Positions 1-56,102 of a stretch of 64,000 nt of DNA are shown one piece after another. The stretch is from NCBI GenBank assembly GCA_900752975.1, contig CAADXH010000018.1:124695-188694 (forward strand), given 5' to 3'. This DNA is from Bacilli bacterium (lineage in GTDB: Bacteria > Bacillota_I > Bacilli_A > ML615J-28 > CAG-313). The number at the start of each line of letters is the position of its first letter. Positions within the stretch are counted from its first letter, which is position 1. The notes beneath the pieces were generated by a model. That model had not been told where the DNA came from. It saw only the letters and a list, made by a program, of their open reading frames with translations, and made no database searches. The position numbers were made by a program, and so were the translations under genes.

Positions 1-938
1 TTATCAGAATCAATCCATACACCTTGACCCATTAAGAAACTCATATTTTTAACTTTACGTTTTGCTTGAATCTCAAATCTTTCAAGAAGTTGTTTCTTGG
101 AGAGTTCTAGATATTTGTCTAATAATTTATAGAATTTTTCTTCATTGCCATCAGCTGTAAGAGCAAGCATTGGAAGATTAATTGTAGTAAAAGACAAATT
201 GCCTCTTCCATAAGCAACTTCTCTTTCAGGATCATATACATTCCCCATTACTCTAGTCCGGCATCCCATACAAGCTACTTCAGTTTCAGGATGTCCTGGT
301 TTATAATATTGCTTATTGAAAGTAGCATCTTCGAAAATATAATTTGGAAAAAGTCGCTTTGCAGTTACTCTATATGATAATTGAAGTAAGTCATGATTAG
401 GATCATGAAGTTTATAATTTACACCATCCTTTACTTTAAAGATTACAATTGGAAAGATAGCTGTTTCTCCATTACCAAGTCCAGCTTCCATAGCAAGTAA
501 CAAATTCTTAGTAACCATTCTACCTGCATTACTTGTATCAGTACCCAGGTTGATCGAACTAAAGGGAACTTGAGCACCTGCACGTGAATGTAAAGTGTTA
601 AGATTATGAACTAATCCTTCCATAGCTTGATAACAAGCTCTTTCTGTATCTTTAACAGAATCTTCTATAATATCAAAATCAGTATCGTCAAAAATTGATC
701 TAAGTCGAACACCACCAAGTAACTCATCTAACACAGAGTTATCAGATTCAATATAGCCATTAATTTTTTCAATAATCTCTTTATGACTCTCACTATAATA
801 TCCATGATCCCAAAAATAATTAAGATGAGACTTATCATAGTCCATATATCTATAAAGGTTATTTTTTAATGCTTTTCTAAACGTCTTATAAATGCCAGGA
901 GCCATGGCGTAATCAAAATTAGGTATTGCCTGCCCACC
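1..938 (-). CDS. nrdD: anaerobic ribonucleoside-triphosphate reductase NrdD, exon 2 (C-terminal part; continues beyond window start)
   Basis: Reverse-strand translation reads GGQAIPNFDYAMAPGIYK...HSRAGAQVPFSSINLGTD...VACMGCRTRVMGN..., typical class III RNR core motifs. It is in frame with exon 1 once 939-1276 is removed. It is absent from the ORF track only because no stop falls inside the window. Confidence 0.8.
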
Positions 939-1276
939 CTGTCAATCACTACAATCAACAGGACTATATCACGAACTTCACCTTCAAGTGGTCAGTTCCC
1001 AACGCACTTCGGAGCTGTATCAATCTCAGCCCTAACGATACTCGGTTACTCGGTCTTCTTATGCAAGACCTACCCTTTTTCTAGTCTCTAGACCTTCAAT
1101 GTATTATTATAATATAAAGCTTGGCACAGGATTCTTGCGGGCTCATTCCCTGTTAGCAAAAGAATTAATATATCATTTCCTATATAAGTCTAAACGATTC
1201 TTTCACACCTCGCTGATAAACGAGTTCACGTTGCTTTGCAATTATATATTTCTATATAATGGCACAGTTATCTTCT
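939..1276 (-). ncRNA. group I self-splicing intron interrupting nrdD (no homing-endonuclease ORF)
   Basis: 338 nt separates two in-frame NrdD halves. The preceding exon ends in U (..CAU) and the intron ends in G (..UUGACAG) directly before exon 2 (GGU GGG CAG). The intron RNA carries R-like (AAGGUCUAGAGACUAG) and S-like (GUGAUAUAGUCC) conserved elements whose AGACUA/UAGUC segments can form P7, plus a P/Q-like pair (CAGGGAAUGAGCC / GAAUCCUGUGCC). No ORF of 60 aa or more on the sense strand. Confidence 0.75.
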
Positions 1277-1969
1277 ATGCTGATCGTTCTGATTACTTTG
1301 AATAGCAATAGCTGCAAGGGTAGCATAAGAACCAATAGAATTTGGTTCTCTTAAATGTCCATGACCAGTATTAAAACCACCTTTAAATAGCTTTAGGCAG
1401 TCAATCTGACAACAAGTAAGTGTTAAAGCATAAAAGTCTAAATCATGAATATAGATAAATCCATCAGTATGTGCTTTTGCAATATCTTTACTAATCATAT
1501 TATTCAGATAGTAATTCTTAGATACATTAGAACCAATCTGTAACATTGTACCCATTGGAGAATCGCCATCAATATTACCATTATCACGTTTAAGGTCACT
1601 GCTATTTGCTTCATGGTTCAACAATTCTGAAATAGATTTAGAGATAGAATCTCTTGTATTTCGAATCTCATTTCTCTTATGTCTATATAAGATATATTCT
1701 TTTGCAGTGTCTGCATATTCACACTTAATAAGAGTTCGTTCAACAATATCTTGAATATCTTCCACATTTATTAAATCTGTAGTATCAGATACACACTTCT
1801 GCTTTGACATAATGGTAATTGCGTTAGTAAGTTTATTACAAATTGATGCATCGAATTTCTCACTATCTGCATGAGAAGCTTCGACTGCTTTCTTAATTGC
1901 ATTGAAGATTTTGGTTTTATCAAAATCCACAATGCTTCCATTCCGTTTTACTACTTTAATCTTATCCAT
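1277..1969 (-). CDS. nrdD: NrdD exon 1 (ATP-cone and N-terminal part)
   Basis: MDKIKVVKRNGSIVDFDKTKI... is an ATP-cone. SD AAAGGAGG lies 6 nt upstream of the ATG at 1969. The ORF-track C-terminus ..NDQHRR* is read-through into the intron; the exon ends after His (CAT, 1277). Confidence 0.8.
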
Positions 1970-2109: not shown

Positions 2110-3204
2110 TTATTTGTCGCATTTATCCTTGTCATCGCAACGACTACAGATAAGATTATTTTTATTTGGAGCAGCTCCATTAGGACAATCCTCATAAAAA
2201 TGATGTTGTTGTTTAGGATAAAAAGGATATTGTTGTGTAGGTGTCAAAGATCTAATTATCTGGTCAATAACATCTATATTCTTATTAACAACATCTGTAT
2301 TCTTACTTTCATCTATATTTATATAGATTCTGTAAATCGTATGCTCATAAGATGTTCCTAAAAATTTTTGAGTAATCGATACATTATCAACAACTAAGTC
2401 TTTAAGCCTTTCACTGATCACCTTATTTTCAATATTTATTTTAGAATAAGCAAGGATATAAGAAACCAAATCAACTTCGTTATATTTACGCTTTAAAATT
2501 AATTTTATTTCAAAAGACTCAATTTTTTGTTTTTCATTGGTTAAATGAATACGTTCTATCGCCTCTTCAACTGATTTACCGATTATATTTGTAATTATAG
2601 GTGTTCCTGCAATTATTTCAGGTACGTCAGATTCTGCGTTTATAGTTTGAGGTTTATTTGTCTTCTCTGGCTTTTGTTTATTCGTCTCAGACTTATCCAA
2701 TTCAGGGAACAATTGTTCAACACAAATTGTTTCCTTAGAGGCTTGATAAATACGTTCCATTGTAACGTTCGATACATCGGAAAGTGTTCCAAATGTAAAG
2801 CCTTTTCCATAGAGCTTATCATTGATTATTCCTGCGATGTTAGCATAACAATGATCTCTTGGAACAATGTTATCTTCAGTTCCATTATATAAAGGAATGA
2901 ATACCTTCATATTATTTGGAAGATACTTAATAGCTTCTTTCAAATCACCGATTGTCATGTTTTTCGATTCCGTAAGGTCTGGAACAAAGTCATTATCCTT
3001 CTTACTCTTTACCTTTACACACAGTGTATCTGGAGAGAAAGGACTAATACCAATCACTTCATGATTCAAATAATCAGAAATGATATTGGTAGTTACTGCT
3101 GTAGCTCCATTCTTGTATTGTTCAGATACAATAATATCTGTACTTTCGATCATTCCACTGTTGATAACGTCCTTCAGTGTTACCATTTTCTTGTTGTTGT
3201 TCAT
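2110..3204 (-). CDS. hypothetical protein, paralog of 3222-3911 (shared N-terminal ~30 aa); Cys-rich C-terminus
   Basis: SD GGAGGAA precedes the third ATG (MNNNKKMVTLKDV...). The N-terminus and the SD region are conserved at DNA level with the next gene. Confidence 0.6.
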   Translation of the reverse strand: MNNNKKMVTLKDVINSGMIESTDIIVSEQYKNGATAVTTNIISDYLNHEVIGISPFSPDTLCVKVKSKKDNDFVPDLTESKNMTIGDLKEAIKYLPNNMKVFIPLYNGTEDNIVPRDHCYANIAGIINDKLYGKGFTFGTLSDVSNVTMERIYQASKETICVEQLFPELDKSETNKQKPEKTNKPQTINAESDVPEIIAGTPIITNIIGKSVEEAIERIHLTNEKQKIESFEIKLILKRKYNEVDLVSYILAYSKINIENKVISERLKDLVVDNVSITQKFLGTSYEHTIYRIYINIDESKNTDVVNKNIDVIDQIIRSLTPTQQYPFYPKQQHHFYEDCPNGAAPNKNNLICSRCDDKDKCDK

Positions 3205-3221
3205 TTTAGTTTCCTCCATTT

Positions 3222-3911
3222 TCATTTTGTTTTATAGGTTTTGTTTACGTATGCGGATAAATATAAAAGTGCTTTATTGAAAGCATCTTTATTTTTATTT
3301 AGATCTACACAAATAAGGTAATCATTTTCAGGAGTTCTATATAATTTATCAACTCCCAAAATATTAACAAGTTTAGTTGTTTCATCAATCACTACTTCAT
3401 CAGAATAAATCTTGGTATCAGTACAATGAAGACTATTAAATAGATAGGAGTATAAATTAACATAATGAGGTATTGGATTATCAACAAATAAGGTTAAGTT
3501 AATATTTTTAGATTTTACCCCACCATCAAGAAGGTATTTTATCATTCCTCTAGCAGTCTCATTGTTATTAAACGACAACGAGATAGAATTATCCATTGTC
3601 CTAGTATAGTAATCACCGTTACTCACTACCATATTCCGAAAATCATCCTCATTAAGATTATTCGTTACACGAAAATTTACGGTTGAAATGTTTATAATTA
3701 ATTCAGCAAATCCAATTGGATTTGGACTAACAATTATAGATATAACTTCACAATCATGAAACTTATCAAAATTAGAAGTAAGATCAAGTGATTCATCTTC
3801 ATAATTTTTTAAGTCAGCATCATAAAGGGAAAACCCGTTTGTCATTTTTTCGATAACACCACTATCAATATAGTCCTTCAGTGTTACCAACTTCTTTTTG
3901 TCGTTGTTCAT
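3222..3911 (-). CDS. hypothetical protein, paralog of 2110-3204
   Basis: MNNDKKKLVTLKDYIDSGVIE... versus MNNNKKMVTLKDVINSGMIE.... SD GGAGGAA. Confidence 0.6.
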   Translation of the reverse strand: MNNDKKKLVTLKDYIDSGVIEKMTNGFSLYDADLKNYEDESLDLTSNFDKFHDCEVISIIVSPNPIGFAELIINISTVNFRVTNNLNEDDFRNMVVSNGDYYTRTMDNSISLSFNNNETARGMIKYLLDGGVKSKNINLTLFVDNPIPHYVNLYSYLFNSLHCTDTKIYSDEVVIDETTKLVNILGVDKLYRTPENDYLICVDLNKNKDAFNKALLYLSAYVNKTYKTK

Positions 3912-3975
3912 TTTAGTTTCCTCCATAAGATAAATATTTAAGACATCTCTGTCTTATTACCTAAATAGTATATAA

Positions 3976-12100: not shown

Positions 12101-13711
12101 ATGGATATAGCAGAAATTTGTCACAGCACAAACTATTGGGTAGAAGTAGATAAATGGACACCACTTCTAGAAGATAGAATTTTTAACGAAACAAAGAATG
12201 CCATAATTCTTCCGGTATCAAAGTTTTATGGTTTAAAAGAAGATTCAATTCTTCTCGATAATTTTATATTGATACCAAAAAGATGCTATAATTCAGATGA
12301 AGTCAGAGGACACATTGTTAAGTATCTGAATTACTTTGAGAGATTTTATGACATAGAGCACGAACTACTATTTTACATCTATCGTATCAAAATCTTAATT
12401 GACATGGGTATTGATTACAAGGATGCAAATGGTAATAAAGTTCACGCTGAATATAGTCTAGAAAATTTCTTGAATGATATCAAGACATATATCTTATCTG
12501 ATAGTATTTACAAGAAAACTTGGAAGATGGTAGAAGATAACTATAGTCTTGAATTGAACTACAAGAACAAAGCAAATGAAGCTCTTCAGTATTGTGATAG
12601 ACATGGTAAGTATCTTATGGAAATTAGTATATTCCAGAATATATTGATTCCATTGTTGATGCACTTTGTTTATAAGAACAAACTGAGCACATCTACAGAT
12701 ACAGTGAACAAAATTATATTCACTGTGTATAATTGGTTGTTTGATGTCTATAAAGATTATAATGTGATGGCAAAGCGTGGATTACAACCTGCTGATATTT
12801 TTCAGAAGTTGTATGAAACTGCTATCACAACAATGAATGCACATTATAAGACAAACAAAATCTTATGGGAAATGTCTAGTATCCGAGGATTTTGTCCAAC
12901 AATCAATGCAAATGATGCAATTGATATTGTCATCATGCAGGTAATCCCGAAATATACCTTTAAAGGAAACGTCATTTCATATAACATTTCTTCTATTAGA
13001 AATAATATCAAGTATAATATTTCTGATATTGGATTTGAATATGATTTTGTTTCCTTATCTTCATCAAAAAGAGATGGTGAAGATAACACATCTCAATTTG
13101 ATAAGTTCGAAGCACATCTTCAAAAGACTGATGAAGGATTAGCACTTCAAAATGACTTTAGAGCAGAAGTTATCATGGATAAGATAACAAAACTCGAAGG
13201 TGGGGTATCTAAGAAAGAAATCGATTTCTATCGAAAAGCTCTGATAAAGAATGGACAATTCTTAGTTAATAAGTTTCAACAGAATCTCGTAAACAATATC
13301 TTTTATAAGTATTTTGGAGATACTGTTTCGATCAATAGTATTAACGCAGATGACTATATTACACTTATTGTAATTGGAAAGAGAATACTTCTTAGAAGTG
13401 GAATGAAACTATTACCGTATATTGTTTCGAGTGCAGTTGTAAAGATTTCTACGAGAACCGGTGTTTGTAAGAAAGAACTTATGAAAATCGAACAGTCAGA
13501 ATATTACTCTGCTTTGAAACGAAAGTATAATGGTAATGAGAAGATTATGAAACAGATTTTCTCACTGATTGCTACAACACTATCTAGCAGCTTTAAAATC
13601 ATCGATTATGATGAAGATAATGAAAAAGCTGGTAAGTATAATGGTAAAGATGTAGTAATGGAAAACGATATTATCATCGATGAGATGATAAGATTTATCA
13701 TTGCAATATAA
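12101..13711 (+). CDS. hypothetical protein
   Basis: SD TAGGAGGC; 536 aa. Confidence 0.6.
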   Translation: MDIAEICHSTNYWVEVDKWTPLLEDRIFNETKNAIILPVSKFYGLKEDSILLDNFILIPKRCYNSDEVRGHIVKYLNYFERFYDIEHELLFYIYRIKILIDMGIDYKDANGNKVHAEYSLENFLNDIKTYILSDSIYKKTWKMVEDNYSLELNYKNKANEALQYCDRHGKYLMEISIFQNILIPLLMHFVYKNKLSTSTDTVNKIIFTVYNWLFDVYKDYNVMAKRGLQPADIFQKLYETAITTMNAHYKTNKILWEMSSIRGFCPTINANDAIDIVIMQVIPKYTFKGNVISYNISSIRNNIKYNISDIGFEYDFVSLSSSKRDGEDNTSQFDKFEAHLQKTDEGLALQNDFRAEVIMDKITKLEGGVSKKEIDFYRKALIKNGQFLVNKFQQNLVNNIFYKYFGDTVSINSINADDYITLIVIGKRILLRSGMKLLPYIVSSAVVKISTRTGVCKKELMKIEQSEYYSALKRKYNGNEKIMKQIFSLIATTLSSSFKIIDYDEDNEKAGKYNGKDVVMENDIIIDEMIRFIIAI

Positions 13712-18917: not shown

Positions 18918-20717
18918 TTAAAATTCTGGATTTACAAATTTAACTGAGTCATCAGGTTGTACAGTTAATTCATATAGACAAAGAATATTTTCTTTAGAAA
19001 TATCTCTTACTGCATAACCATTCATACCCAATACTTGAATTTTAGCATTTGCTTGCTTTTCACATTCTTGATTTGCTTCTATTGTATAGACTGGTTTTAC
19101 AATAGCAGTGTCCCCATCATAGTCCATCCCCATTGCACCTATTAATCCGTTACAAATAGAAAGAGTATCTTCAAACAGAGGAGATGTATTTGAATTTAAA
19201 TCTTTTGCTTCGATAACAGGATACCATTTGTAGAGTTTCATATTATCTTCGAATCCAGATTGAACAACCATAGGACAAGTTTTTACAGTAGATTTGATTC
19301 TAACTTTAGATGGATACTGATTTAAGAATGAGTCAATAGGGAAACGTGTAATTAATACCATCTTATCTTCAGTAACATCACATGCTGCCATATAAAACAA
19401 ATCACACCACGTAAGTCCTCTTTCTATTTTTAAATCAGCTGAGTATTCCTTTTTTGTTTTATTATAATCTTTAGCATTGTTTAATCTATATCCACCAAAA
19501 AACATACCAAATTTTAATGACTTTAAATCAGCTTTCTTTCCAGTAGAAGTTTTTACTTCGTTATTTTTAACTCGCCTTGCAAATTCTTCTTTATCTACAG
19601 GAAGTTCTATTGGAATAAAACGATTAGAATAACCATGAATAAAACGTTCAATCTGTTTCTCTAGTTCTACATCAGAGAATGCTATCTGATAATCGACCAA
19701 GGGAACATAGACAAATTCATTTTCATTAATCGCAATTGGATATTCCATTTTACCAGCAAATCTATTTTCGAAGAAACGTCTTAACCAGAATACAATAAAT
19801 GGTTTGAAACAACACAATGCTGCTGCTAACGGTAATGCAGCATGATTCATATCAATCATTAAATCATCTATTTCTTCTCCTGATACATCTGGTGCAGACA
19901 TTACCAAACGTGCGGAATAGTCTACTGTTTTATACAATGTACCACGTTTAATTAGACCCATTTTACCAGGAAGATTTGCTGGGGTTTCCTGTCCATTAAT
20001 TGTAGTACCGTTACCAAACCAGTCAAAGATTTGAAGTAAGATATTCTGTACTCTCGCTTTAGTAACTTCACTTAAAGTCAAGCCAAAACCAGCAGTCTCT
20101 TTCAATGATTTTGTAGCCATAATCAGACTACTATATAACTTATTAATTTCACCCACACCAATACCGTTATCTCTAGATTCAACGTCACGATAATATGGTG
20201 GAATTACAATGTACTTTGTAATCCATAATTGGTCTTTGCTCTTTTGAATAAAATCGATTCTTTTATTACGAGAAGATGAATCATTCTTCTTAAATTTTAT
20301 TTTACTAAAGTTCTTTCTTAACCAATCAATACCTGTATTACCATCATCAGACTTCACTAATTCTCCGTTACTATCAATGATAAAATACTCAGTACCATTT
20401 ACAATACTTTCAATTTTATTATTTAACTTACATAAAGTCTTATATACAATTGGATGGAAAAAAGAACCTCCTAAATCAATATAAGCAAAGATACCAGAAC
20501 GTTCTGCTTTTGTAATACCAAAGATTTCATTTGATAATAAACCATCTTCTGTTGGTGTTGGACCATTGAAAAATACTGGGTTAGTAACTTCTTTTAGCAT
20601 ATTCACTTTAACAAACTTTTCCATATCCAAAAGAGAAGTTTTTAAGTGTTGTGTACTTGCTTCTGTAAAAAAATCAGTATCGTTTTTAACGATATTAACT
20701 GCTTCATCTATAATCAT
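18918..20717 (-). CDS. multisubunit RNA polymerase beta-prime subunit, N-terminal fragment (contains the catalytic DYDGD loop)
   Basis: VLITRFPIDSFLNQYP....GAMGMDYDGDTAIVKPVY aligns with bacterial beta-prime NRAPTLHRLGIQAF...YNADFDGDQMAVHVPL. N-terminal GLLSNEIFG...IDLG.SFFHPIV resembles the clamp region but lacks the zinc finger. SD GGAAGGAG precedes MIIDEA. Confidence 0.65.
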   Translation of the reverse strand: MIIDEAVNIVKNDTDFFTEASTQHLKTSLLDMEKFVKVNMLKEVTNPVFFNGPTPTEDGLLSNEIFGITKAERSGIFAYIDLGGSFFHPIVYKTLCKLNNKIESIVNGTEYFIIDSNGELVKSDDGNTGIDWLRKNFSKIKFKKNDSSSRNKRIDFIQKSKDQLWITKYIVIPPYYRDVESRDNGIGVGEINKLYSSLIMATKSLKETAGFGLTLSEVTKARVQNILLQIFDWFGNGTTINGQETPANLPGKMGLIKRGTLYKTVDYSARLVMSAPDVSGEEIDDLMIDMNHAALPLAAALCCFKPFIVFWLRRFFENRFAGKMEYPIAINENEFVYVPLVDYQIAFSDVELEKQIERFIHGYSNRFIPIELPVDKEEFARRVKNNEVKTSTGKKADLKSLKFGMFFGGYRLNNAKDYNKTKKEYSADLKIERGLTWCDLFYMAACDVTEDKMVLITRFPIDSFLNQYPSKVRIKSTVKTCPMVVQSGFEDNMKLYKWYPVIEAKDLNSNTSPLFEDTLSICNGLIGAMGMDYDGDTAIVKPVYTIEANQECEKQANAKIQVLGMNGYAVRDISKENILCLYELTVQPDDSVKFVNPEF

Positions 20718-20822
20718 ATATGTTTCTCCTTCCATATTAATTTATAAGATTGTTAAAGAGACAAAAAAAGAAAGCCTAACTCACGTCAGTCTTTCTTTAA
20801 TCCTTACAGATGATGCTTTTGA

Positions 20823-35804: not shown

Positions 35805-37841
35805 TTATGCTCCAATCTCCTTAGGCTTACTATACAAATAACCATCCTTAAGACTATTATAGATTTCAGTAAAGTTATTAAAATCAGACTTATCGAAATC
35901 AAATTTAGGTTGTTCAAATACAGACTTATCTCCACAAGCCATTGCATTAACAATCTTCAAATCTCGTTTATTTTTACAATTAATAAACAATCCACGATTA
36001 TCAACTTCTGGTTTTCTGGATACATCGTCAAAATCATGATACGTCAATATACCATTCGGTCGTCTTACTGTTGTGAAATACTCAATGATGTCATCATACA
36101 TTTCTTCATAACCAGCAAAATGGAACCAACGACTAAAGAATTCAATCCAGTTATGTGACTGTAAATCATCCATGAATTGAGCTTCTCTTCTCCATTTGAT
36201 TTCATCTCTATGAAATCTATTTTCAAATTCATATACCTTTTCTGGGATATTAACATGCCCAATCAATGTCGTCTGCGACATGTTAAATTCAGATGTGATT
36301 GATGGATACAAAGACTTATAATCAAAGTCATCCAGATTATTAAAGATAGATACTGGAATACCATTAATTCTCATCTTAGAATAATCACTATTATATTTCG
36401 GGTCTGCAACAAATGCACCTGGGAATTTTTCTTTCGGTGTATTCTGATTTGTATTATTACCCATAATCATTCCATATCTATAATATGACTTTGCTGCTCG
36501 ATTCTTAAGATATACAGTTTGACGATATATTTTTGACCAACGAGTATTGTCTAACAATACATTATTATATGCAGAGTCAATATCATTTACTTTAAACTCT
36601 ATACAATACTGTACAATTGTATCCATAATATTATAGAATACGAATGTTTCATAATCTTTATATGGTAATTCTGCAAGTTTCGTTGTAATATGACTATAAT
36701 CAAGTTTCTTTACACCACAAGTAATCTGTCCGATATAATCCAACTTATAATTCTCAATCGCTTTTTGTCCCTTTCGTCTAGACGCAAAATGAATCATCTG
36801 ATCAAGATACACCGAATATGAACTAATCTTTGCGAAGTCATTTCTTTCTTCATAATTAAACTTATTCTTCTCATCAATAAAGTAATTTACTTCTTTATAT
36901 CTGAAATCTGGATGACACATAATATCCTTTGGATTATATCCAAGATTGATAATTCGTTGGATGATATACGGAATATCGAATGCCATGTTCCATGCTAGCA
37001 CAGTATCTGGTTTGATATTGTTAATATAATTGAATAGGTGTTTTAATAAAACAATCTCATCTTCTTCATCATAGAAATGAAATTGAACAGTCATCTTATC
37101 AATCTTATACTTACAAGCTTGTTTCTCTCCACCAACCGCATCGATTAAGAATTGTCGTAATCGCATATTCAATGATGGTTTATTACATTCTTTTTCAAAT
37201 TTCTCAATCAATGGATTCTCTTTATTTCGTAATAAGAATGAATGAACAACCAAGGACTGATCATCAATAAATGATACTGCATTGATTGGACATTCACCAA
37301 GTTCTACGAATTCACCCTTACAATCAATTGTATCAGCTTCAATATCAAGAAATGATTTCGATGGTTTGGTATAACTATTCTCATATGAGTTCGCAAATTG
37401 AAACCTGATGTTATCTTCAATATCCATATCAGACATCAGGATCGCTGGGTTATAATTACATAACACTTTATTTGCAGCTCGATTCCGATTACGAATGTTT
37501 TCAAAGAACTCATTTGTTTTTCCTAATCGGTCTGCAATGTCTTTTTGAAGAGATATAAACGGCGTGATGATTCGTTTACAATCTTCTTTCATTGCATATT
37601 CCAAAGTATATCTTGGAACTTCTTTTCCATCAAGTAGCATATAATATTCATACTCAGGATTAATTATTGTTTCCAAAAACTTTTCACCTGACCGAATATC
37701 TTTGATAATCAAATCAATTGCCGGTGATAACCATTTCCCATTCGGATCTTTCTTTGGGTAATGGTAAATCGTGTTTAATAAAGATAACGGATATCCTTTT
37801 GGATATTGACCTATCAAAAAATCATCTTCGTAATATTTCAT
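35805..37841 (-). CDS. family B DNA polymerase, N-terminal part (3'-5' exonuclease domain + polymerase motif A)
   Basis: Exo I FLDIEAD; Exo II AWNMAFDIPY; motif A DFDYKSLYPSI. The ORF stops about 170 aa after motif A, and motifs B and C are absent. SD TAGGAGGC. Confidence 0.75.
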   Translation of the reverse strand: MKYYEDDFLIGQYPKGYPLSLLNTIYHYPKKDPNGKWLSPAIDLIIKDIRSGEKFLETIINPEYEYYMLLDGKEVPRYTLEYAMKEDCKRIITPFISLQKDIADRLGKTNEFFENIRNRNRAANKVLCNYNPAILMSDMDIEDNIRFQFANSYENSYTKPSKSFLDIEADTIDCKGEFVELGECPINAVSFIDDQSLVVHSFLLRNKENPLIEKFEKECNKPSLNMRLRQFLIDAVGGEKQACKYKIDKMTVQFHFYDEEDEIVLLKHLFNYINNIKPDTVLAWNMAFDIPYIIQRIINLGYNPKDIMCHPDFRYKEVNYFIDEKNKFNYEERNDFAKISSYSVYLDQMIHFASRRKGQKAIENYKLDYIGQITCGVKKLDYSHITTKLAELPYKDYETFVFYNIMDTIVQYCIEFKVNDIDSAYNNVLLDNTRWSKIYRQTVYLKNRAAKSYYRYGMIMGNNTNQNTPKEKFPGAFVADPKYNSDYSKMRINGIPVSIFNNLDDFDYKSLYPSITSEFNMSQTTLIGHVNIPEKVYEFENRFHRDEIKWRREAQFMDDLQSHNWIEFFSRWFHFAGYEEMYDDIIEYFTTVRRPNGILTYHDFDDVSRKPEVDNRGLFINCKNKRDLKIVNAMACGDKSVFEQPKFDFDKSDFNNFTEIYNSLKDGYLYSKPKEIGA

Positions 37842-38107
37842 ATTTAGCCTCCTAATCATCAACGAACGTAATACGTTCTTTCAATCTATTTATATATTTG
37901 TTTTCTCTGATGTAAAAGAAAAAATTATCTCCACAGAATGAACTGTGGAGATATCCAAATAAAATTAACAAGAGGAAAACAAACAAACTTCACAAGAGGA
38001 AAATCATGTCAACCAGATTTAAGGTCTTCCAACCTTATTTAAATGTTAACAAATATTAACGATTTATAAGAAAAACATCTCTATAAAATCACAAAGGAGG
38101 AAATAAC

Positions 38108-39055
38108 ATGGCTATCTTAAACGATGATGTTCTTAAACGAGGCTCTTCTAATAATACTACTTTATCTACTCAATCTACTACTTCTGATGAAACTCCATCA
38201 GAATCTACTCCACCGAAAAGAAAAAGAGGAAGACCTAGAAAAAGTGAACAACAATCAACCGAAGTTATTGAAATAACACCAAGTCATCATAAACAACAAT
38301 CTGACATTCCTATGTGTCAATCATCCGAACCATATGAAAACACTTATGATGAAACAAATAATATGCTTAAATACTCTATTATGCAATTGGATGTATTAGC
38401 AAATGATATTAAGAATGAACTTGATACAATTAGAAAATCTAAGACACTTAAGGGAAAATATCAGTTCATTTCTGATTTATGTTCTACTGCAAGTAACTTA
38501 GTAAGTTCTAAAATTTCTGCAATAAAGGAGATTAATGCTGTTAAGACAAATTGTCATAAGCTCGAATTACAGCGAGTTAAGGACATTAAGAACTCTGCAG
38601 CAAACCAACAAGATGATGATAAATTTATTACTGATATGTACAATGCTTATATTAATACTCCTGTAAATGCTGGCTCTAATCCAATGATGCAATATACATC
38701 TTCTAACATTGGTGGAAATATGAATGCATATATGAATGGAGTAAATACTTCTCAAGTTAATGAGGAACAAAATTTTCAAAACTATATGAGCAATCTATCT
38801 CCTGAACAAAACAGAATGATTTTGGGTGATAATCCTAATATTGAAACTGTTGTAGTGTATGATCCAAATACAGGAGAAAAGGCTTTTGAAGTAATTGATT
38901 CTAGTACAGGTCTATCTGTACCAAACTATCCTAGACCAAGTAATTCATTATTAGACGATACAAGTGTTGATATATCTACTGGTATTGCATCTAATACAAA
39001 TATTGGTCAGAGTTGGAAAGTTGTTGTTCTCGGAGATATGATAAATAAGTTCTAA
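38108..39055 (+). CDS. hypothetical protein with an AT-hook-like PKRKRGRPRK segment
   Basis: SD AAAGGAGGAAA; S/T-rich N-terminus then KRKRGRPRKSEQQ. Confidence 0.55.
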   Translation: MAILNDDVLKRGSSNNTTLSTQSTTSDETPSESTPPKRKRGRPRKSEQQSTEVIEITPSHHKQQSDIPMCQSSEPYENTYDETNNMLKYSIMQLDVLANDIKNELDTIRKSKTLKGKYQFISDLCSTASNLVSSKISAIKEINAVKTNCHKLELQRVKDIKNSAANQQDDDKFITDMYNAYINTPVNAGSNPMMQYTSSNIGGNMNAYMNGVNTSQVNEEQNFQNYMSNLSPEQNRMILGDNPNIETVVVYDPNTGEKAFEVIDSSTGLSVPNYPRPSNSLLDDTSVDISTGIASNTNIGQSWKVVVLGDMINKF

Positions 39056-39446: not shown

Positions 39447-39523
39447 ATGTATTATCTATAATTTAAAGAAAAAGAAGGATGAGTCGAAAGGCTCATTCTT
39501 TTTTGTAAGAAAAGGAGGTAACT

Positions 39524-40828
39524 ATGGCTTATAGAGAAATTAAGATTCAAGATGTTACTGTAGATACGCAATTGAATCGAAATATCACAGTAGCACCATT
39601 ACATCAAAGCTATGCATTGTGTGTAGAATATATGAAGCATTGGTTTCTTAAAAAGTTTGAAAAAGATTTCTTTTCTTGGATTCATATTGACGGTAGCCAT
39701 GTCTTTGGTGAGATTATGAAATATGATAAGAAGGCAATCATGTCTCATCTTAGTGACGATAAAGCTGCTCTAACAATTATACCAACGATTGACGATGATT
39801 ATAATAGAGACCGACTTGACCAAAATCTATTCGGACTTGACCAATTTATTAACACAACAAAGATTGATAAAGCTTTCTTTCAAGATCCAGTTAATAAAAA
39901 ATATATTATGATGCAAATGGATATGATGTTATTAAATTTCACTTACAGAGTAAAAGTTCCATCCAGAGCAATGCAACTAGATTTACAGAAATACATGAAG
40001 TTAGCATTTCGAACAAATCTATCTGAATCACAAGATGTTGATTTGGACTATGTAATGCCATATCCAATGATGCTATTTATGGCAAGAGATTTAGGATTTA
40101 AAATTAAAGATGATAGAATCTGTGAGCCAATAAAATTTCTAACTTATTTGAATAGTCGGTCTTATATTCCAATTACTTATAAGCGTTCGAATGTCAATGC
40201 TCGAGAAGAATACTTTGTTAGAGTAGACCATTTACCAGTACGTTTATTAATTAAAGACGTTACAAAAGATGATGGAAATAAATACGGTCATATTGCTGAT
40301 GACTTCAATATTGAAATGCAAGTAGAGGTTCGATTCCCATCTATGCAATTATACGTATACTTTACAAAAGAAGAATTTACAAGTATTTCTGTTGGTAAAG
40401 AAGCTTATAATATCGATAATACATTAATGATGTCATTGCATTATTATGATGACCCACCTGCTGTAAATGATCGTGGTTGGAAGTTAACAATTAATGCCCA
40501 ATGGGAAGAAGATAAACCTGGAGAAATCAATATTGATTTGAATGAATTATTTGATGGGGAGTTATCTCAGATTGCGAATTATCTTACATCTAAATTTATT
40601 TCTCCTAGTACCTTTATAGATGTACAGATATACAGTAATGGAATAAAACTAAAAGATGTTAATATTGATTGGGGAAGTATGAAACTCTCTGCATTTAATC
40701 CTACTGAAAAACTTGTATCAACCTTAGCAATTTATATTGACCTTGAATATCTAAATAGTGTAAGAGTAGAAAGTTACGGTAATAAGTCTAGTAAAGTTAT
40801 GCCCAGCGACCCTAATAGGTCTTACTAA
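39524..40828 (+). CDS. hypothetical protein
   Basis: SD AAAAGGAGGT; 434 aa. Confidence 0.6.
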   Translation: MAYREIKIQDVTVDTQLNRNITVAPLHQSYALCVEYMKHWFLKKFEKDFFSWIHIDGSHVFGEIMKYDKKAIMSHLSDDKAALTIIPTIDDDYNRDRLDQNLFGLDQFINTTKIDKAFFQDPVNKKYIMMQMDMMLLNFTYRVKVPSRAMQLDLQKYMKLAFRTNLSESQDVDLDYVMPYPMMLFMARDLGFKIKDDRICEPIKFLTYLNSRSYIPITYKRSNVNAREEYFVRVDHLPVRLLIKDVTKDDGNKYGHIADDFNIEMQVEVRFPSMQLYVYFTKEEFTSISVGKEAYNIDNTLMMSLHYYDDPPAVNDRGWKLTINAQWEEDKPGEINIDLNELFDGELSQIANYLTSKFISPSTFIDVQIYSNGIKLKDVNIDWGSMKLSAFNPTEKLVSTLAIYIDLEYLNSVRVESYGNKSSKVMPSDPNRSY

Positions 40829-51010: not shown

Positions 51011-53227
51011 TTAATCACCCATATACTTAAACAACTCATCTGATGTTCCCTGAGATTGAACAACTGGTTCATTCGCAAGGAACTTCTGTGGCTGTACCAT
51101 ATACAGCAAATCATATCCTGAAGGTTCATGCTTCTTGAAACTCAATGGTGAATATAACATTCTAGCAATATCCTCAGATTGAAGAGATATAGAAATACTT
51201 GGGTGGGTAGCAACTGCTTTCTTCAATGTGAGAATCTTATATTTCTGATTATCAGGAATTGACCAATCTGGAACTTCAATAATATTATCAATCGAACGAA
51301 GCTGATTCATAATAATTACTTCCAGATGAACACTCATGATATTATCAAGACCAATATCATTCAGCTTATTACTCAATGTTTCCAAGAATGTTTCAGCTGT
51401 ATAATTATCTGTATTTGCCTTGAGATTGATAATATTGATAACAGCTTGAAGTCTTTCAGACATATCATCATTATGAATATTATTCAAGTCGAACAAAGGA
51501 TAATCAGAACCAATAATATTGTTTACTGGAATAATGATATCTTCATCTACTGTATTAATATTCTTAAGTTTCAGATATTCCAAAAGCCAATCACTCAACT
51601 GGAAGTTATCAAGGTTTGATGAACGAATTGGATAATCTTCTCCAGTAGATTCATTTCTAAGATAAAATACATTTACATACTTTATCACATCTTCAAAACT
51701 TGTATCTACGTCATCATCGTTTTCGTCGTTTTCTACAGAAGCGAATATTTCTTCCTGAATGTCTCCTTCTCTGATGACAAACTTCCATTTCTTTCCATCT
51801 CTGAATTCCGGATTAATATAAATTGTACCGTCATCTAATGTGATAAGACGTTCAATTTGTTCCTTCGGAAGTACAGTTGTATCAAAGGTCACTTCATTAA
51901 TCTTAGCTTCAAGAAGATGTTTTGCAGATAGCATCATCTGAGTCAATGGTTCAGTAAGATTCGTTACACTATAAATACCAATGTTTACAGCTGGTATAAT
52001 ATTGTATAACTCGCCCATACATTTTCTACAAATACCAAGTCCCATTGCTGCTGATTTACACTTGATTGGGCTTCTAAGATATATCTCTTGTCCAATAAGA
52101 TCAGAATTCTTCTTTACGATATTATATACATCGCTTGTCCGATATTCCATTCCTCTTGGGTTGGTACGATAGTATCTATCTGCAATCTTTCTCAATGCAG
52201 TTTCATCCGTAACTTTATATTTCAAGAAGTTACGAGTTCCACAATCAAAATACGGGTCGATTGTATTCGTATACGGTTTTGTATACTTCTTTGTTCTAGA
52301 ACAATTCAATATCATAATTCTACTAAACTGTCCAGAACGAGCAGTATTTTTCTTTGACAGAATCTGTGCAATTCTAGCAATCAAAGATTCAAGAATATGA
52401 AATGCAACATTATTAGCACCACCGCTAATATAATTCGTGTCTACTACATATGGGAAAATACTACCTTCCCCATTCGGTTTGACACCAATATTAATATACA
52501 TTTCACGAGCTTGTTTTGGTTTGACGCCTTCTTTTGCTCTAAAGGCATCTGATAGACAATGGTCTCTACCGATATACTGTTTCGCATTAACGATATAATC
52601 AATTAATCGATTCATATCTTTTAATGCTTCTGCGTTCATCTGTTCTGGTGGAAACTGAGAATAATAATGATTCTTATGTCTATCCATGATTTCTTTAAAT
52701 CCTGGACAATTGTTATACATAAGAATGAAATCTTCATTGTTAATGGAGTTGTTGAAGAACCACGCAAATCCATCTACAAACTTAAGATTTCTCAAAGTAT
52801 CATAGATAATGCGATTCAAATTATGAATAATCATAATGTTATTGTCTTTACCACAACGTTCTCTTGTTGGGATAATCGCAAAATTATCAATATACTTTTT
52901 GATATAGCTGTTAGTAATACCAGCCTTATTGAAGAAAACATGATATGGTTTAATTCTTTGACCGGTCTTAATAACAAACTGCCACACAATAATGTTTATG
53001 AGAGCATATGCTAGTGGTAAAATAACTATCATATTGTTCTCAAATACAAATTGTATCTTTGTATTTTGTACTCTCGGAACCTCAATGTAATCCAAGAATA
53101 CATCCTTCAAATCTTTCACATAATCATCAATGGTTTCTTCATTAATATCAATCGTATTGATTGAAATGGGATTGCCATTAATGACTGGTGTAAACACACC
53201 ATAGTCGTACACTGCGAGTGCGTTCAT
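51011..53227 (-). CDS. multisubunit RNA polymerase beta-prime subunit, C-terminal fragment (contains the trigger-loop region)
   Basis: YLRSPIKCKSAAMGLGICRKCMGE resembles beta-prime VRSVVSC...GVCAHCYGRD. SVTNLTEPLTQMMLSAKH resembles the trigger-loop GEPGTQLTMRTFH. SD TAGGAGGT. Confidence 0.6.
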   Translation of the reverse strand: MNALAVYDYGVFTPVINGNPISINTIDINEETIDDYVKDLKDVFLDYIEVPRVQNTKIQFVFENNMIVILPLAYALINIIVWQFVIKTGQRIKPYHVFFNKAGITNSYIKKYIDNFAIIPTRERCGKDNNIMIIHNLNRIIYDTLRNLKFVDGFAWFFNNSINNEDFILMYNNCPGFKEIMDRHKNHYYSQFPPEQMNAEALKDMNRLIDYIVNAKQYIGRDHCLSDAFRAKEGVKPKQAREMYINIGVKPNGEGSIFPYVVDTNYISGGANNVAFHILESLIARIAQILSKKNTARSGQFSRIMILNCSRTKKYTKPYTNTIDPYFDCGTRNFLKYKVTDETALRKIADRYYRTNPRGMEYRTSDVYNIVKKNSDLIGQEIYLRSPIKCKSAAMGLGICRKCMGELYNIIPAVNIGIYSVTNLTEPLTQMMLSAKHLLEAKINEVTFDTTVLPKEQIERLITLDDGTIYINPEFRDGKKWKFVIREGDIQEEIFASVENDENDDDVDTSFEDVIKYVNVFYLRNESTGEDYPIRSSNLDNFQLSDWLLEYLKLKNINTVDEDIIIPVNNIIGSDYPLFDLNNIHNDDMSERLQAVINIINLKANTDNYTAETFLETLSNKLNDIGLDNIMSVHLEVIIMNQLRSIDNIIEVPDWSIPDNQKYKILTLKKAVATHPSISISLQSEDIARMLYSPLSFKKHEPSGYDLLYMVQPQKFLANEPVVQSQGTSDELFKYMGD

Positions 53228-54002: not shown

Positions 54003-56102
54003 ATGGATATCACACAAATGGTTAACAGTCCGACAGTAGATATATATAAGAATGAGATGTTGGATGCTCTGAAACTATCATTTCCTGGTTTGACAGAATT
54101 TGATTTGAGAGAAGCAATCGATTATTCTATTGTAAAGAGAGGTAAGGATAGTAAAGCATATCTAGATAATAACTACAAAAAAGTAAGGGAAAAGAGAACT
54201 CTGTTTGAGATTACAGATTATATCATTCAAAGAGAACCGATTATTACAGTATCTGGTGTTATGTTTAAGAAACATGGTTCTTGTCCAAACCCATTCGTAA
54301 GATTAATTCAAGAGTTCTTGGAACAAAGAGGAATCTATAAAAAAACAATGTTCAAGTATCCGAAAGGTTCAGAAGAATTTGAAAAGTATAATATTCTTCA
54401 ACTTTCGGAAAAAGTTTCTGGTAATGCAATGTATGGTGCATCTGGTAATCATACAAGTGTCTTCTATAATCTTTATGTAGCAAGAAGCATTACAATGCAA
54501 GGTAGAAGTTGTATTGCAGCTGCTATTATGCTGTTTGAAGCTACAATGGCAAATAATGTAAAACTTCTCAGTTTAAACGATGTTGTTACATTTATCAATA
54601 ATGTAAGAAGAGAACCAATTGGAAAATATCCTGATGAGATTATTCTTGATAAAGATAAGTATGTGACAGCAGAAGAATGTTTCTTTAAAATCTTATACAG
54701 TTGTGGATTCTATTGGATTCCAACTGAAAAAGAAATGACTCTGATTTGGGATATTATTAATCAATGTAGTCAGCATGAGTTGAACAAATTGTTTTATAAA
54801 AACAATCTATTCTGGTTTGTAGATAATAGCGTCGTAATGAATAAAATTTTAAGTATTTTGTCTACTCTTGATGCACCATTTATTGACCCGAATGAACCAC
54901 CGGAATCTATCAAAGGAATGATGGATGAATTATATGATATGATATTTGAATGGGTTTATTATGATAAACAGTATATGGATAGAATCGATAGAACTGAGAA
55001 TATGTATCGTTGCGTATCTATGCTTACAGATACAGATAGTTGTTTCATTTCATTTGATGGATGGTATCGTTATATTCTAGATAAAACATTCAATATTCCA
55101 ATGAAGATTAAAGAACTTGAAATCGAAGAAAAAACTGGTGAAATAAAAGAAGCTTTTGATATTTCATATGACTATGATTTCTATACAGATGAAATTATTG
55201 AAAGTCAGAACATTATTAGACCTGACGTTATCACACCTCAAGTAGGATTCCGTTGTAGTATTATCAATATTCTTGCTAGTATTATGGGGAAACTTGCAAT
55301 TGACTATATGGGTAAGTATTCTGATAACTCTAATTCTACAACTTGTTATGACGGTTCAAAGCGTAAGAGTTTCTTCATTCTTAAGAATGAGTTTCAACTT
55401 AAACGTGCTCTTATTACGGATGGTAAAAAGAACTATTGTGCATATCAAGAAAGACAAGAATCTAATATCATCCCAAAAGAAAAAGCATTATCAATTACAG
55501 GTATGCCGATTAAAAAAGTTGGTGTTCCGGAATCTACTAAGATTAGATTACAGAGAATTTTACTCGACCAAGTACTTGATAATCCTGGAGAAATCTCTCA
55601 AGTAGAAATTGTAAAGCAACTAGCTGTGTTGGAAAAACAAATCATTGAAGCAATCGAAAATGGTAGTAAGGATTATTTCAAGCCTGAAAGAATTAAAGCA
55701 TTCAGTGCATATGATACTCCGATGAGAGAATCTGGTATTAAAGCATCTGTTGCATTTAATTTCTTGAAAGATGATAATATGGAAGCAATTGACCTAGACC
55801 AAAGAAACAGTATTCTAAATATCAAAGTAAACATTGACAAAAAGAATGTTGATGGGTTGAAAGAAAAGTATCCACAGATTTATGAAAAAGCGGTAGAGCT
55901 GATGACTACAAAAAAAGAATTCGCTAAGGGAATTACAGGTATTGCAATTCTTGATAATATGCAAGTTCCGGAATGGGTAAAAGATTATATTGATTATGCA
56001 ACAATTGTAAATGATAATCTTCGTTCATTCCCATGTGAAGCATTAGGTATAGACCGTATTGAAAATAAGTATATAAACTATACGAATATTTTGAAGTTCT
56101 AA
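54003..56102 (+). CDS. family B DNA polymerase, C-terminal part (motifs B, C, KKxY; palm/fingers/thumb)
   Basis: Motif B KVSGNAMYG; motif C LTDTDSCFISF; KKxY region GKKNYCAYQ. SD TTGGAGGT. Begins about 130 aa before motif B and has no exonuclease domain or motif A. Confidence 0.75.
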   Translation: MDITQMVNSPTVDIYKNEMLDALKLSFPGLTEFDLREAIDYSIVKRGKDSKAYLDNNYKKVREKRTLFEITDYIIQREPIITVSGVMFKKHGSCPNPFVRLIQEFLEQRGIYKKTMFKYPKGSEEFEKYNILQLSEKVSGNAMYGASGNHTSVFYNLYVARSITMQGRSCIAAAIMLFEATMANNVKLLSLNDVVTFINNVRREPIGKYPDEIILDKDKYVTAEECFFKILYSCGFYWIPTEKEMTLIWDIINQCSQHELNKLFYKNNLFWFVDNSVVMNKILSILSTLDAPFIDPNEPPESIKGMMDELYDMIFEWVYYDKQYMDRIDRTENMYRCVSMLTDTDSCFISFDGWYRYILDKTFNIPMKIKELEIEEKTGEIKEAFDISYDYDFYTDEIIESQNIIRPDVITPQVGFRCSIINILASIMGKLAIDYMGKYSDNSNSTTCYDGSKRKSFFILKNEFQLKRALITDGKKNYCAYQERQESNIIPKEKALSITGMPIKKVGVPESTKIRLQRILLDQVLDNPGEISQVEIVKQLAVLEKQIIEAIENGSKDYFKPERIKAFSAYDTPMRESGIKASVAFNFLKDDNMEAIDLDQRNSILNIKVNIDKKNVDGLKEKYPQIYEKAVELMTTKKEFAKGITGIAILDNMQVPEWVKDYIDYATIVNDNLRSFPCEALGIDRIENKYINYTNILKF

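Follow-up and report, generated by a model that had tools for sequence, protein, structure and literature searches.

A predicted group I intron without an open reading frame in a phage nrdD gene, and its relatives with and without an HNH homing endonuclease

The window analyzed here is a stretch of 64,000 nt from contig CAADXH010000018.1 (positions 124,695 to 188,694, forward strand; GenBank assembly GCA_900752975.1, deposited as a Bacilli bacterium). Near its start, on the minus strand, the anaerobic ribonucleotide reductase (RNR) gene nrdD is interrupted by 338 nt (1276..939), which very probably constitute a functional group I intron of a phage, lacking an open reading frame (ORF) of its own. 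This reading is built on an exact exon junction, on helices that covary between lineages and on homology to copies of the same element that carry an endonuclease gene. A group I intron at this site had been proposed in a sequence-only reading of the window, and all elements of that proposal were found where it had placed them.

Exon 1 comprises 231 codons from the ATG at 1969 and ends in CAU (1279-1277), encoding His231; by translation and Pfam it contains the ATP-cone and the start of the NRDD domain, with the C-terminal end …QSNQNDQH. Exon 2 begins at 938 with GGU GGG CAG (GGQ), reads GGQAIPNFDYAMAPG… and runs past the window start. Removal of the insert joins …QNDQH|GGQAIP… exactly and in frame (predicted spliced junction …GAUCAGCAU|GGUGGGCAGG…; junction peptide …NDQHGGQAIPNFDYAMAPGIYK). 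The spliced protein aligns without gaps across this junction to the solved NrdD of PDB 8p23 (QNEMHGGQAIPAFD versus QNDQHGGQAIPNFD), an alignment that the sequence-only reading had suggested as a check on His|Gly-Gly-Gln. Exon 1 covers positions 1-103 of the Pfam NRDD profile and exon 2 resumes at 104, such that 103|104 abut at the junction, and two relatives without an insert are continuous at the nucleotide level (L002 …CAACAT|GGTGGACAA… and L010 …TGTCAT|GGTGGGCAA…, both CAT|GGTGG); the proposed H|GGQ junction is backed by each of these comparisons. The U that ends exon 1 (1277) and the G that ends the insert (939) were likewise anticipated and are read directly in the sequence, the G being kept in all copies. 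Read on from exon 1, the frame meets a stop after two codons of the insert (…QHRR*), and the 338 nt hold no sense-strand ORF of 50 codons or more and no intron-encoded homing endonuclease, in agreement with the proposed ORF-less form. GC content is 0.455 over 901-1100, the 3' half of the insert, as compared to ∼0.30 in its surroundings. A 68-aa ORF on the opposite strand, dismissed as spurious in the sequence-only reading, is an artefact: it has no Pfam match and is not conserved in relatives, its ATG being gone in three W-type variants and several stops interrupting its frame in the L009, L007, and L017 lineages.

An interruption of this kind could also mark a naturally split nrdD, with the two halves translated separately and the 338 nt serving as a mere spacer. 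GenBank presents the analogous locus of Clostridium phage CS01 (PV788061.1, 30077-32952) and 24 siblings in this manner, as two nrdD coding sequences (CDSs) with an "HNH endonuclease" CDS between them and no intron, and split RNR genes without introns exist in phages (PMC3653736). For the window, such an arrangement is very improbable. Neither a start codon nor a Shine-Dalgarno sequence lies ahead of exon 2, an in-frame TGA stands two codons upstream of it, and the first in-frame ATG is found 11 codons into the conserved GGQAIPNFDYA motif. The break further falls within a contiguous Pfam domain, between adjacent profile positions, and the supposed spacer has a conserved, covarying RNA structure with a guide sequence that tracks the exon.

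Eleven related nrdD loci, on contigs of 113-225 kb, were identified among viral contigs in a protein-guided scan. By tblastn, nine of these are interrupted at exactly the site seen in the window, with identical boundaries (CAU|AG…CAG|GGUGG), and the site is uninterrupted in L002 and L010; thus, intron-plus and intron-minus alleles coexist among relatives. ORF-less inserts measure 337-338 nt in L001, L004, L005, L006, L008, and L011 and 326 nt in L017. The inserts of L003 (883 nt) and L007 (866 nt) each contain an ORF of ∼175 aa that matches Pfam HNH_3 (E = 2.5e-9 and 2.1e-10, respectively), and that of L009 (462 nt) holds an internally deleted remnant of the same ORF. The HNH ORF sits at the tip of helix P6a, at the same insertion site in the relatives that have it; L043 and L054 also carry an HNH_3 ORF there, and L050 a remnant. 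In L003 the ORF is flanked by a perfect 13-bp P6a stem (UAUUAUCGAAUUC…GAAUUCGAUAAUA). At the P6a tip (1107-1109) the window copy has the sequence UAUUAU-A-AUAAUA, so that, relative to L003 (2299-2845), 546 nt are replaced by 1 nt at the loop, and the difference between ORF-less and HNH forms looks like the clean loss or gain of an endonuclease module. Full, decayed, and ORF-less introns together with empty sites are the pattern expected of the homing-endonuclease life cycle, and the locus illustrates this cycle of gain and loss at a single site. The intron most likely descended from a mobile intron with an HNH homing endonuclease at the P6a tip, the window copy either having lost the ORF or representing a form that predates its arrival. 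A search with a profile of the family (nhmmer) found a single copy in the window.

Other sites within nrdD are also occupied in relatives. A second insert, of 369 to ∼1228 nt, follows residue 355 in L005 (4404-4772), L011 (4404-5625), and L009 (3313-4540), a position at which the window gene is uninterrupted. It belongs to a different sequence family for which a P1 (AGGU/GCCU) is possible, and its long forms hold a LAGLIDADG-type ORF (…YFLGFFLADGC…). At a third site, near residue 457, L011 (5932-7056) has an in-frame insert of 375 codons with intein hallmarks (…ACMG|CVQKD……IISHN|CRTRV), whereas in L002 (4363-5184) the insert is of 822 nt and includes an ORF and a group I S element (GUGAUAUAGUC). 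The nrdD of L011 accordingly contains two introns plus an intein, and nrdD appears as a hotspot with up to that number of elements in relatives.

Helices were assigned in intron numbering, in which nucleotide n corresponds to window position 1277-n (Table 1). The most telling helix is P1, in which the U·G wobble is invariant while exon and internal guide sequence change together (GCAU/GUGC versus GCCAU/GUGGC), including one G-C to C-G double change. The same rule is obeyed by two further lineages in other exon contexts (GGGU/GCCC and AAUUUGGU/GCCAAAUU), for three contexts in total. The group I core, P3-P8 with the P3/P7 pseudoknot and the P, Q, R, and S elements, is present throughout, and P3, P4, P8, and P9 covary, P4 (nt 125-129/146-150) through an A-U to G-C double change. 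P7 forms from the R and S elements (GACUA/UAGUC), as the sequence-only reading had expected. The pairing of nt 44-48 with 273-277 was identified as P3 on account of its complementary variants, its class-wide complements (see below) and a 3' order like that of the T4 nrdD intron; six complementary variants are seen in three lineages (CAACG/CGUUG, CGGCG/CGUCG, CCAGG/CCUGG, CGACG/CGUCG, UGCAG/CUGCA, and CCACG/CGUGG). Stem variants of the extra hairpin H1 are CUCG/CGAG, CCUG/CAGG, CACG/CGUG, and CCUA/UAGG. CS01 has a P7.1 of different sequence, whereas a related lineage typified by L012 has none; P7.2 matches in position the P7.2 of the T4 nrdD intron, and P9 is a single 6-bp hairpin between the P7 3' strand and the terminal AG. 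Two other candidate pairings were rejected. The P3 implied by Rfam (nt 113-121 with 213-221) has no double changes, 86% pairing and two mismatched pairs, clashes with the covarying Z and P7.1, and is not matched by any helix in the L012-type or CS01 lineages. In L007, a local pairing between nt 45-48 and 81-84 is broken whereas the long-range P3 is retained.

Covariation was quantified over 73 pairs in an alignment of eight distinct nrdD-lineage sequences, from which endonuclease ORFs had been removed and which included exon flanks of 10 nt, and the helices covary far beyond controls in which the sequences were shuffled or the pairing partners slid. Paired cells amounted to 98.4% (90.1% shuffled; 35-42% slid), 21 pairs changed on both sides (13.4 shuffled; 0-4 slid), and the covariation score was 0.305 (0.138 shuffled; 0.04-0.07 slid). 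Cells changed on both sides numbered 53 (17.7 shuffled; 0-7 slid), although cell counts overstate the independent events because the eight aligned sequences represent only about four independent types. On each of these four measures, all 500 shuffles stayed below what was observed; on a fifth, the number of further standard pair types, 29 were observed as compared to 33.1 after shuffling, and 493 of the 500 shuffles were at least as high.

The small number of independent types is one of several observations that weigh against a functional intron. P7 and the inner P7.2 stem never vary and are therefore uninformative with respect to covariation, P5 is very short and unconfirmed, and P10 has only 2-3 bp. 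By minimum free energy, the intron folds no more stably than its shuffled versions (z = -0.21). The Rfam group I model RF00028 gave no match in the whole window, either at the gathering threshold or in a permissive scan. On a 551-nt local region it reached 19.9 bits (E = 0.009), far below the gathering score of 50, and a routine Rfam scan would thus miss the intron. The local match is full-length (model 1-253, window 1212..939) and its 3' end coincides exactly with the terminal G, but taken alone it is weak evidence. A scan with RF00028 had been put forward in the sequence-only reading, which counted the lack of a covariance-model hit, together with transcripts retaining the 338 nt, against an intron; by that rule the outcome would look half-negative. 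The positive evidence for a group I intron comes instead from the comparative analysis.

Low Rfam score, missing thermodynamic signal, tiny P5, weak P10 and lack of an endonuclease ORF are also what might be seen in a decayed, splicing-dead group I relic, in which case nrdD would be a pseudogene or yield only a truncated product. Most of the probability that does not fall to a functional intron goes to such a relic, which is nevertheless improbable. All helices are intact with compensatory changes between lineages, a pattern that demands selection for the RNA fold. The two exons, too, are undamaged, with 92-100% protein identity among W-type relatives and no frameshifts, and the same ORF-less form recurs in several distinct phage contigs.

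The gene attracts several kinds of element, as illustrated by the genuine intein at another nrdD site in L011 (…CMG|C…SHN|CRTRV), and an intein, a group II intron or a translational-bypass element might be considered for the window as well. An intein is incompatible with the stops in the exon frame of the insert, no group II domain V/VI signal was found in the region, and 338 nt far exceeds known bypass gaps. With all group I hallmarks present, an element of another kind is scarcely credible.

Catalysis and splicing in vivo we infer from the sequence, and a group I intron of this structure would be expected to proceed as follows. The internal guide sequence CUGUGC would pair with the end of exon 1, setting U1277 in the U·G wobble of P1, and the core would assemble from P3-P8 with the P3/P7 pseudoknot, the P4-P6 domain, and P7.1/P7.2. 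P7 would bind an exogenous guanosine, which would attack the 5' splice site; the terminal G (939) would then take the place of this guanosine, and the freed exon 1 would attack the 3' splice site. Ligation would give …CAU|GGU… and a continuous NrdD (…QNDQH-GGQAIP…).

The intron has ∼69 nt, folded into H1 and Z/H2, between the P3 5' strand and J3/4. Viral contigs of IMG/VR were scanned for this architecture (L073-L187) with the motif AGGAAAUG-N8-30-GCUAACAGGG, which spans the H2 loop, the Z 3' strand, J3/4, and P4. The motif occurs in at least 119 stretches, indicating that an architecture with hairpins between P3 and J3/4 is common in phages. Among the matches listed, 107 parsed, non-redundant elements were used for tests of the class. 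Z has at least nine contiguous pairs in 105 of the 107, and its strands take 80 distinct sequences. In 75 of 92 elements, the 5-mer ahead of UGAAC finds a perfect Watson-Crick partner just 5' of P8, 8-120 nt upstream of the S element; swapping strands between introns lowered this number to a mean of 7.8 (maximum 16). In almost all of the listed cases GAAG(U/C)G stands before this P3 complement, and a hairpin (P8), J8/7, and UAGUC come after it. No name for the extra hairpins H1 and Z/H2 (e.g., "P3.1") was found in the literature open to search, and a prior description is possible. Whether these introns amount to a large undescribed architectural class, with an IA2-like 3' half, H1 and Z/H2 between P3 and J3/4, a subclass with an H1-P7.2 contact, at least 119 IMG/VR matches, scores far below the Rfam threshold and no annotation in GenBank phages, is doubtful and is offered here as a tentative proposal.

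A related intron lies in a PAPS-reductase-like gene (…GYSRCGC|NIACPF…) in L012 (∼1660-2812) and also in L020, L024, L029, L046, L048, L051, and L058. This L012-type intron has H1 and P7.2 loops and an 18-mer identical to those of the nrdD lineage, and its P1, P3, and Z sequences differ; a GIY-YIG ORF lies in its P6, P7.1 is missing, and P8 is branched.

The H1 loop UAUCAG (nt 59-64; window 1213-1218) is complementary to the P7.2 loop UUGAUA (nt 254-259; window 1018-1023). Neither loop varies between the nrdD lineage and a distant lineage located in a different gene, and the 18-mer GGGCUGAGAUUGAUACAG is perfectly conserved, an invariance that a kissing contact would explain. (A scan with the 18-mer gave many chance matches in metagenome and genome collections, which were removed by nhmmer filtering.) In class members with large loops the two loops vary in step, giving eight distinct complementary loop pairs (UGACGAA/UUCGUCA, UAUCUA/UAGAUA, UAACCA/UGGUUA, UAUCCA/UGGAUA, UAUCA/UGAUA, GCUCA/UGAGC, AUCAA/UUGAU, and GUCUA/UAGAC). 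The longest loop-loop complement averaged 4.0, as compared to 3.11 ± 0.15 with swapped loops, and none of 500 swaps reached the observed value. Class members with a 4-nt H1 loop, CS01 included, gave no signal of loop-loop complementarity. Overall, these patterns suggest that the H1 loop probably forms a 6-bp kissing tertiary contact with the P7.2 loop.

Table 1. Coordinates of nrdD, the predicted intron and its structural elements in the window
Feature	Window position	Strand	Basis or remark
nrdD exon 1	1277..1969	-	translation; Pfam ATP-cone and NRDD 1-103; PDB 8p23 alignment
group I intron (predicted), 338 nt, ORF-less	939..1276	-	same boundaries in 9 related loci
nrdD exon 2	1..938	-	translation; Pfam NRDD from position 104
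P1 5' strand, exon GCAU + intron A1 G2	1275..1280	-	pairs with 1262-1267; U1277 is the splice-site U of the U·G wobble
internal guide sequence CUGUGC, nt 10-15	1262..1267	-	pairs with P1 5' strand
P2 hairpin, nt 17-24/29-36, GAAA loop	1241..1260	-	5 of 8 pairs double-changed, 100% paired
P3 5' strand CAACG, nt 44-48, then conserved UGAA	1229..1233	-	covariation
extra hairpin H1, nt 53-56/65-68	1209..1224	-	stem covaries; loop UAUCAG nt 59-64 (1213-1218)
extra stem Z, nt 71-80/112-121, encloses H2	1156..1206	-	class-wide pairing
H2 hairpin, nt 91-95/104-108, loop AGGAAAUG	within 1156..1206	-	3 pairs double-changed
J3/4 UAA (nt 122-124) and P4-P5-P4' (P and Q elements)	1127..1155	-	Rfam alignment
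P6/P6a, nt 152-185	1092..1125	-	tip nt 168-170 (1107-1109), HNH ORF site in relatives
R element UCUAGAGACUAG	1092-1081	-	includes P7 5' strand GACUA (1082-1086); invariant in all lineages
P7, nt 191-195/311-315, GACUA/UAGUC		-	R and S pairing
P7.1 hairpin, nt 207-212/220-225	1052..1070	-	two pairs double-changed
P7.2 hairpin, nt 245-250/260-265, loop AGAUUGAUA	1012..1032	-	nt 254-259 (1018-1023) complementary to H1 loop
P3 3' strand CGUUG, nt 273-277, preceded by conserved GAAGUG	1000..1004	-	covariation; class-wide complement
P8, nt 279-282/301-304 and 287-289/296-298	973..998	-	three pairs double-changed
J8/7 GUGAUA (nt 305-310) and S element/P7 3' strand	961..972	-	Rfam alignment, sequence
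S element GAUAUAGUCC	970-961	-	includes P7 3' strand UAGUC (962-966)
P9 hairpin, nt 318-323/331-336	941..959	-	two pairs double-changed; other sequences in other lineages
terminal guanosine (omega-G), nt 338	939	-	3' splice site; conserved in all copies
spurious 68-aa antisense ORF	1099..1305	+	no Pfam match; unconserved

PHROGs matches in the window include RNA polymerase beta-subunit families, a DNA polymerase, a major head protein, and a virion protein, and they mark the AT-rich window as DNA of a jumbo phage that encodes a multisubunit RNA polymerase of its own. Two DNA-polymerase-like ORFs on opposite strands and three RNA-polymerase beta-subunit-like ORFs lie at 35805-37862 (-), 54003-56102 (+), 18918-20735 (-), 51011-53227 (-), and 12101-13711 (+). 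Upstream of nrdD, ORFs of 371 and 234 aa (2110-3225 and 3222-3926, minus strand) share a near-identical N terminus, M(K M)EETKMNN-KK-VTLKD-I-SG-IE, and look like tandem paralogs. A subthreshold match to RF04356 (group II intron domain-5; 25.8 bits versus 61, E = 0.14) at 39463-39510 (+), in the gap between ORFs 38108-39055 and 39524-40828, probably arose by chance.

In the annotation of the window, the two nrdD fragments should be joined as one CDS and the 68-aa antisense ORF dropped. As such introns are well known, an intron in a phage nucleotide-metabolism gene is a correct yet ordinary finding. RF00028 under-detects a widespread class of phage introns, and the same annotation error is present in 25 deposited Clostridium phage genomes; pipelines therefore probably under-call the class and over-call "split" RNR genes. 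The insertion between P3 and J3/4 and the loop-loop contact would matter to ribozyme structural biology only if previously undescribed.

That phage RNR genes contain group I introns is textbook knowledge, with T4 td, nrdB, and nrdD as examples. A non-coding (ORF-less) intron is reported to split nrdD in Lactococcus phage 949 (PMC3653736), and in the gut "Jug" jumbo phages group I introns are reported to fragment the gene in 95 of 104 genomes, with RNA sequencing in support of splicing (PMC12880540). Both are likened to the window intron by description, and the Jug phages are of 360-402 kb as compared to relatives of the window on contigs of 113-225 kb. The T4 nrdD (sunY) intron, a group IA intron with I-TevII, is likewise a group I intron in a phage nrdD, and association with a homing endonuclease is common to both systems, in at least some copies. 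In their 3' halves the two follow the same order of P7, P7.1, P7.2, a CGAAAC/GAAGUG linker, P3', P8, J8/7 (GAUA), and UAGUC; T4 reads …GGGUCAAGCGACCCGAAAC-GGCAGA-C-[P8]-GAAGAUA-UAGUC, and its P3 5' strand, UCUGCC, stands directly before J3/4, whereas ∼69 nt (H1 and Z/H2) intervene in the window intron. The T4 ORF is of the GIY-YIG type and lies downstream of the core, in contrast to the HNH ORF in P6a of the window's relatives and its absence from the window copy, and T4 has an extended P9 region where the window intron has a minimal single-hairpin P9. T4 nrdD is uninterrupted at HQYGG, its intron lying near residue 338-340 in window protein numbering, and a search of the T4 nrdD gene with the intron family profile gave no match. 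The parallel with T4 drawn in the sequence-only reading consequently holds at the level of kind and fails for insertion site and profile similarity.

Megablast of the region against deposited phages returned no match, and the one finding of sensitive blastn was a stretch of 64 nt shared with 25 Clostridium phages. Among deposited sequences, the unannotated nrdD intron of CS01 and 24 sibling records (CS01-CS37; PV788061 and 24 records) is the closest relative. Its architecture corresponds helix by helix and is built from other base pairs, with CCACG/CGUGG as P3 and GUACAACUA/UAGUUGUGC as Z; H1, H2, P7.1, P7.2, P8, and P9 are all present. It shares the host gene with the window intron and is 79% identical over the P4-P6 segment. 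In contrast to the window copy, the CS01 intron holds an HNH ORF in P6, has no P2, and is inserted one codon downstream (FG|GF versus H|GG; …QQFG|GFTIPEID…); with a 4-nt H1 loop and a different P7.2 loop, it lacks the kissing complementarity. Subgroup IA2, the commonest viral group I subtype, is defined by P7.1/P7.2 and an extended P9 domain, P9.0-P9.2 (PMC4227781). The window intron departs from IA2 in having no P9.0, P9.1, or P9.2 and in its extra H1 and Z/H2 between P3 and J3/4, but shares with it P7.1 and P7.2 between P7 and P3', the phage context and typical R and S sequences, and its 3' half matches the IA2-type order.

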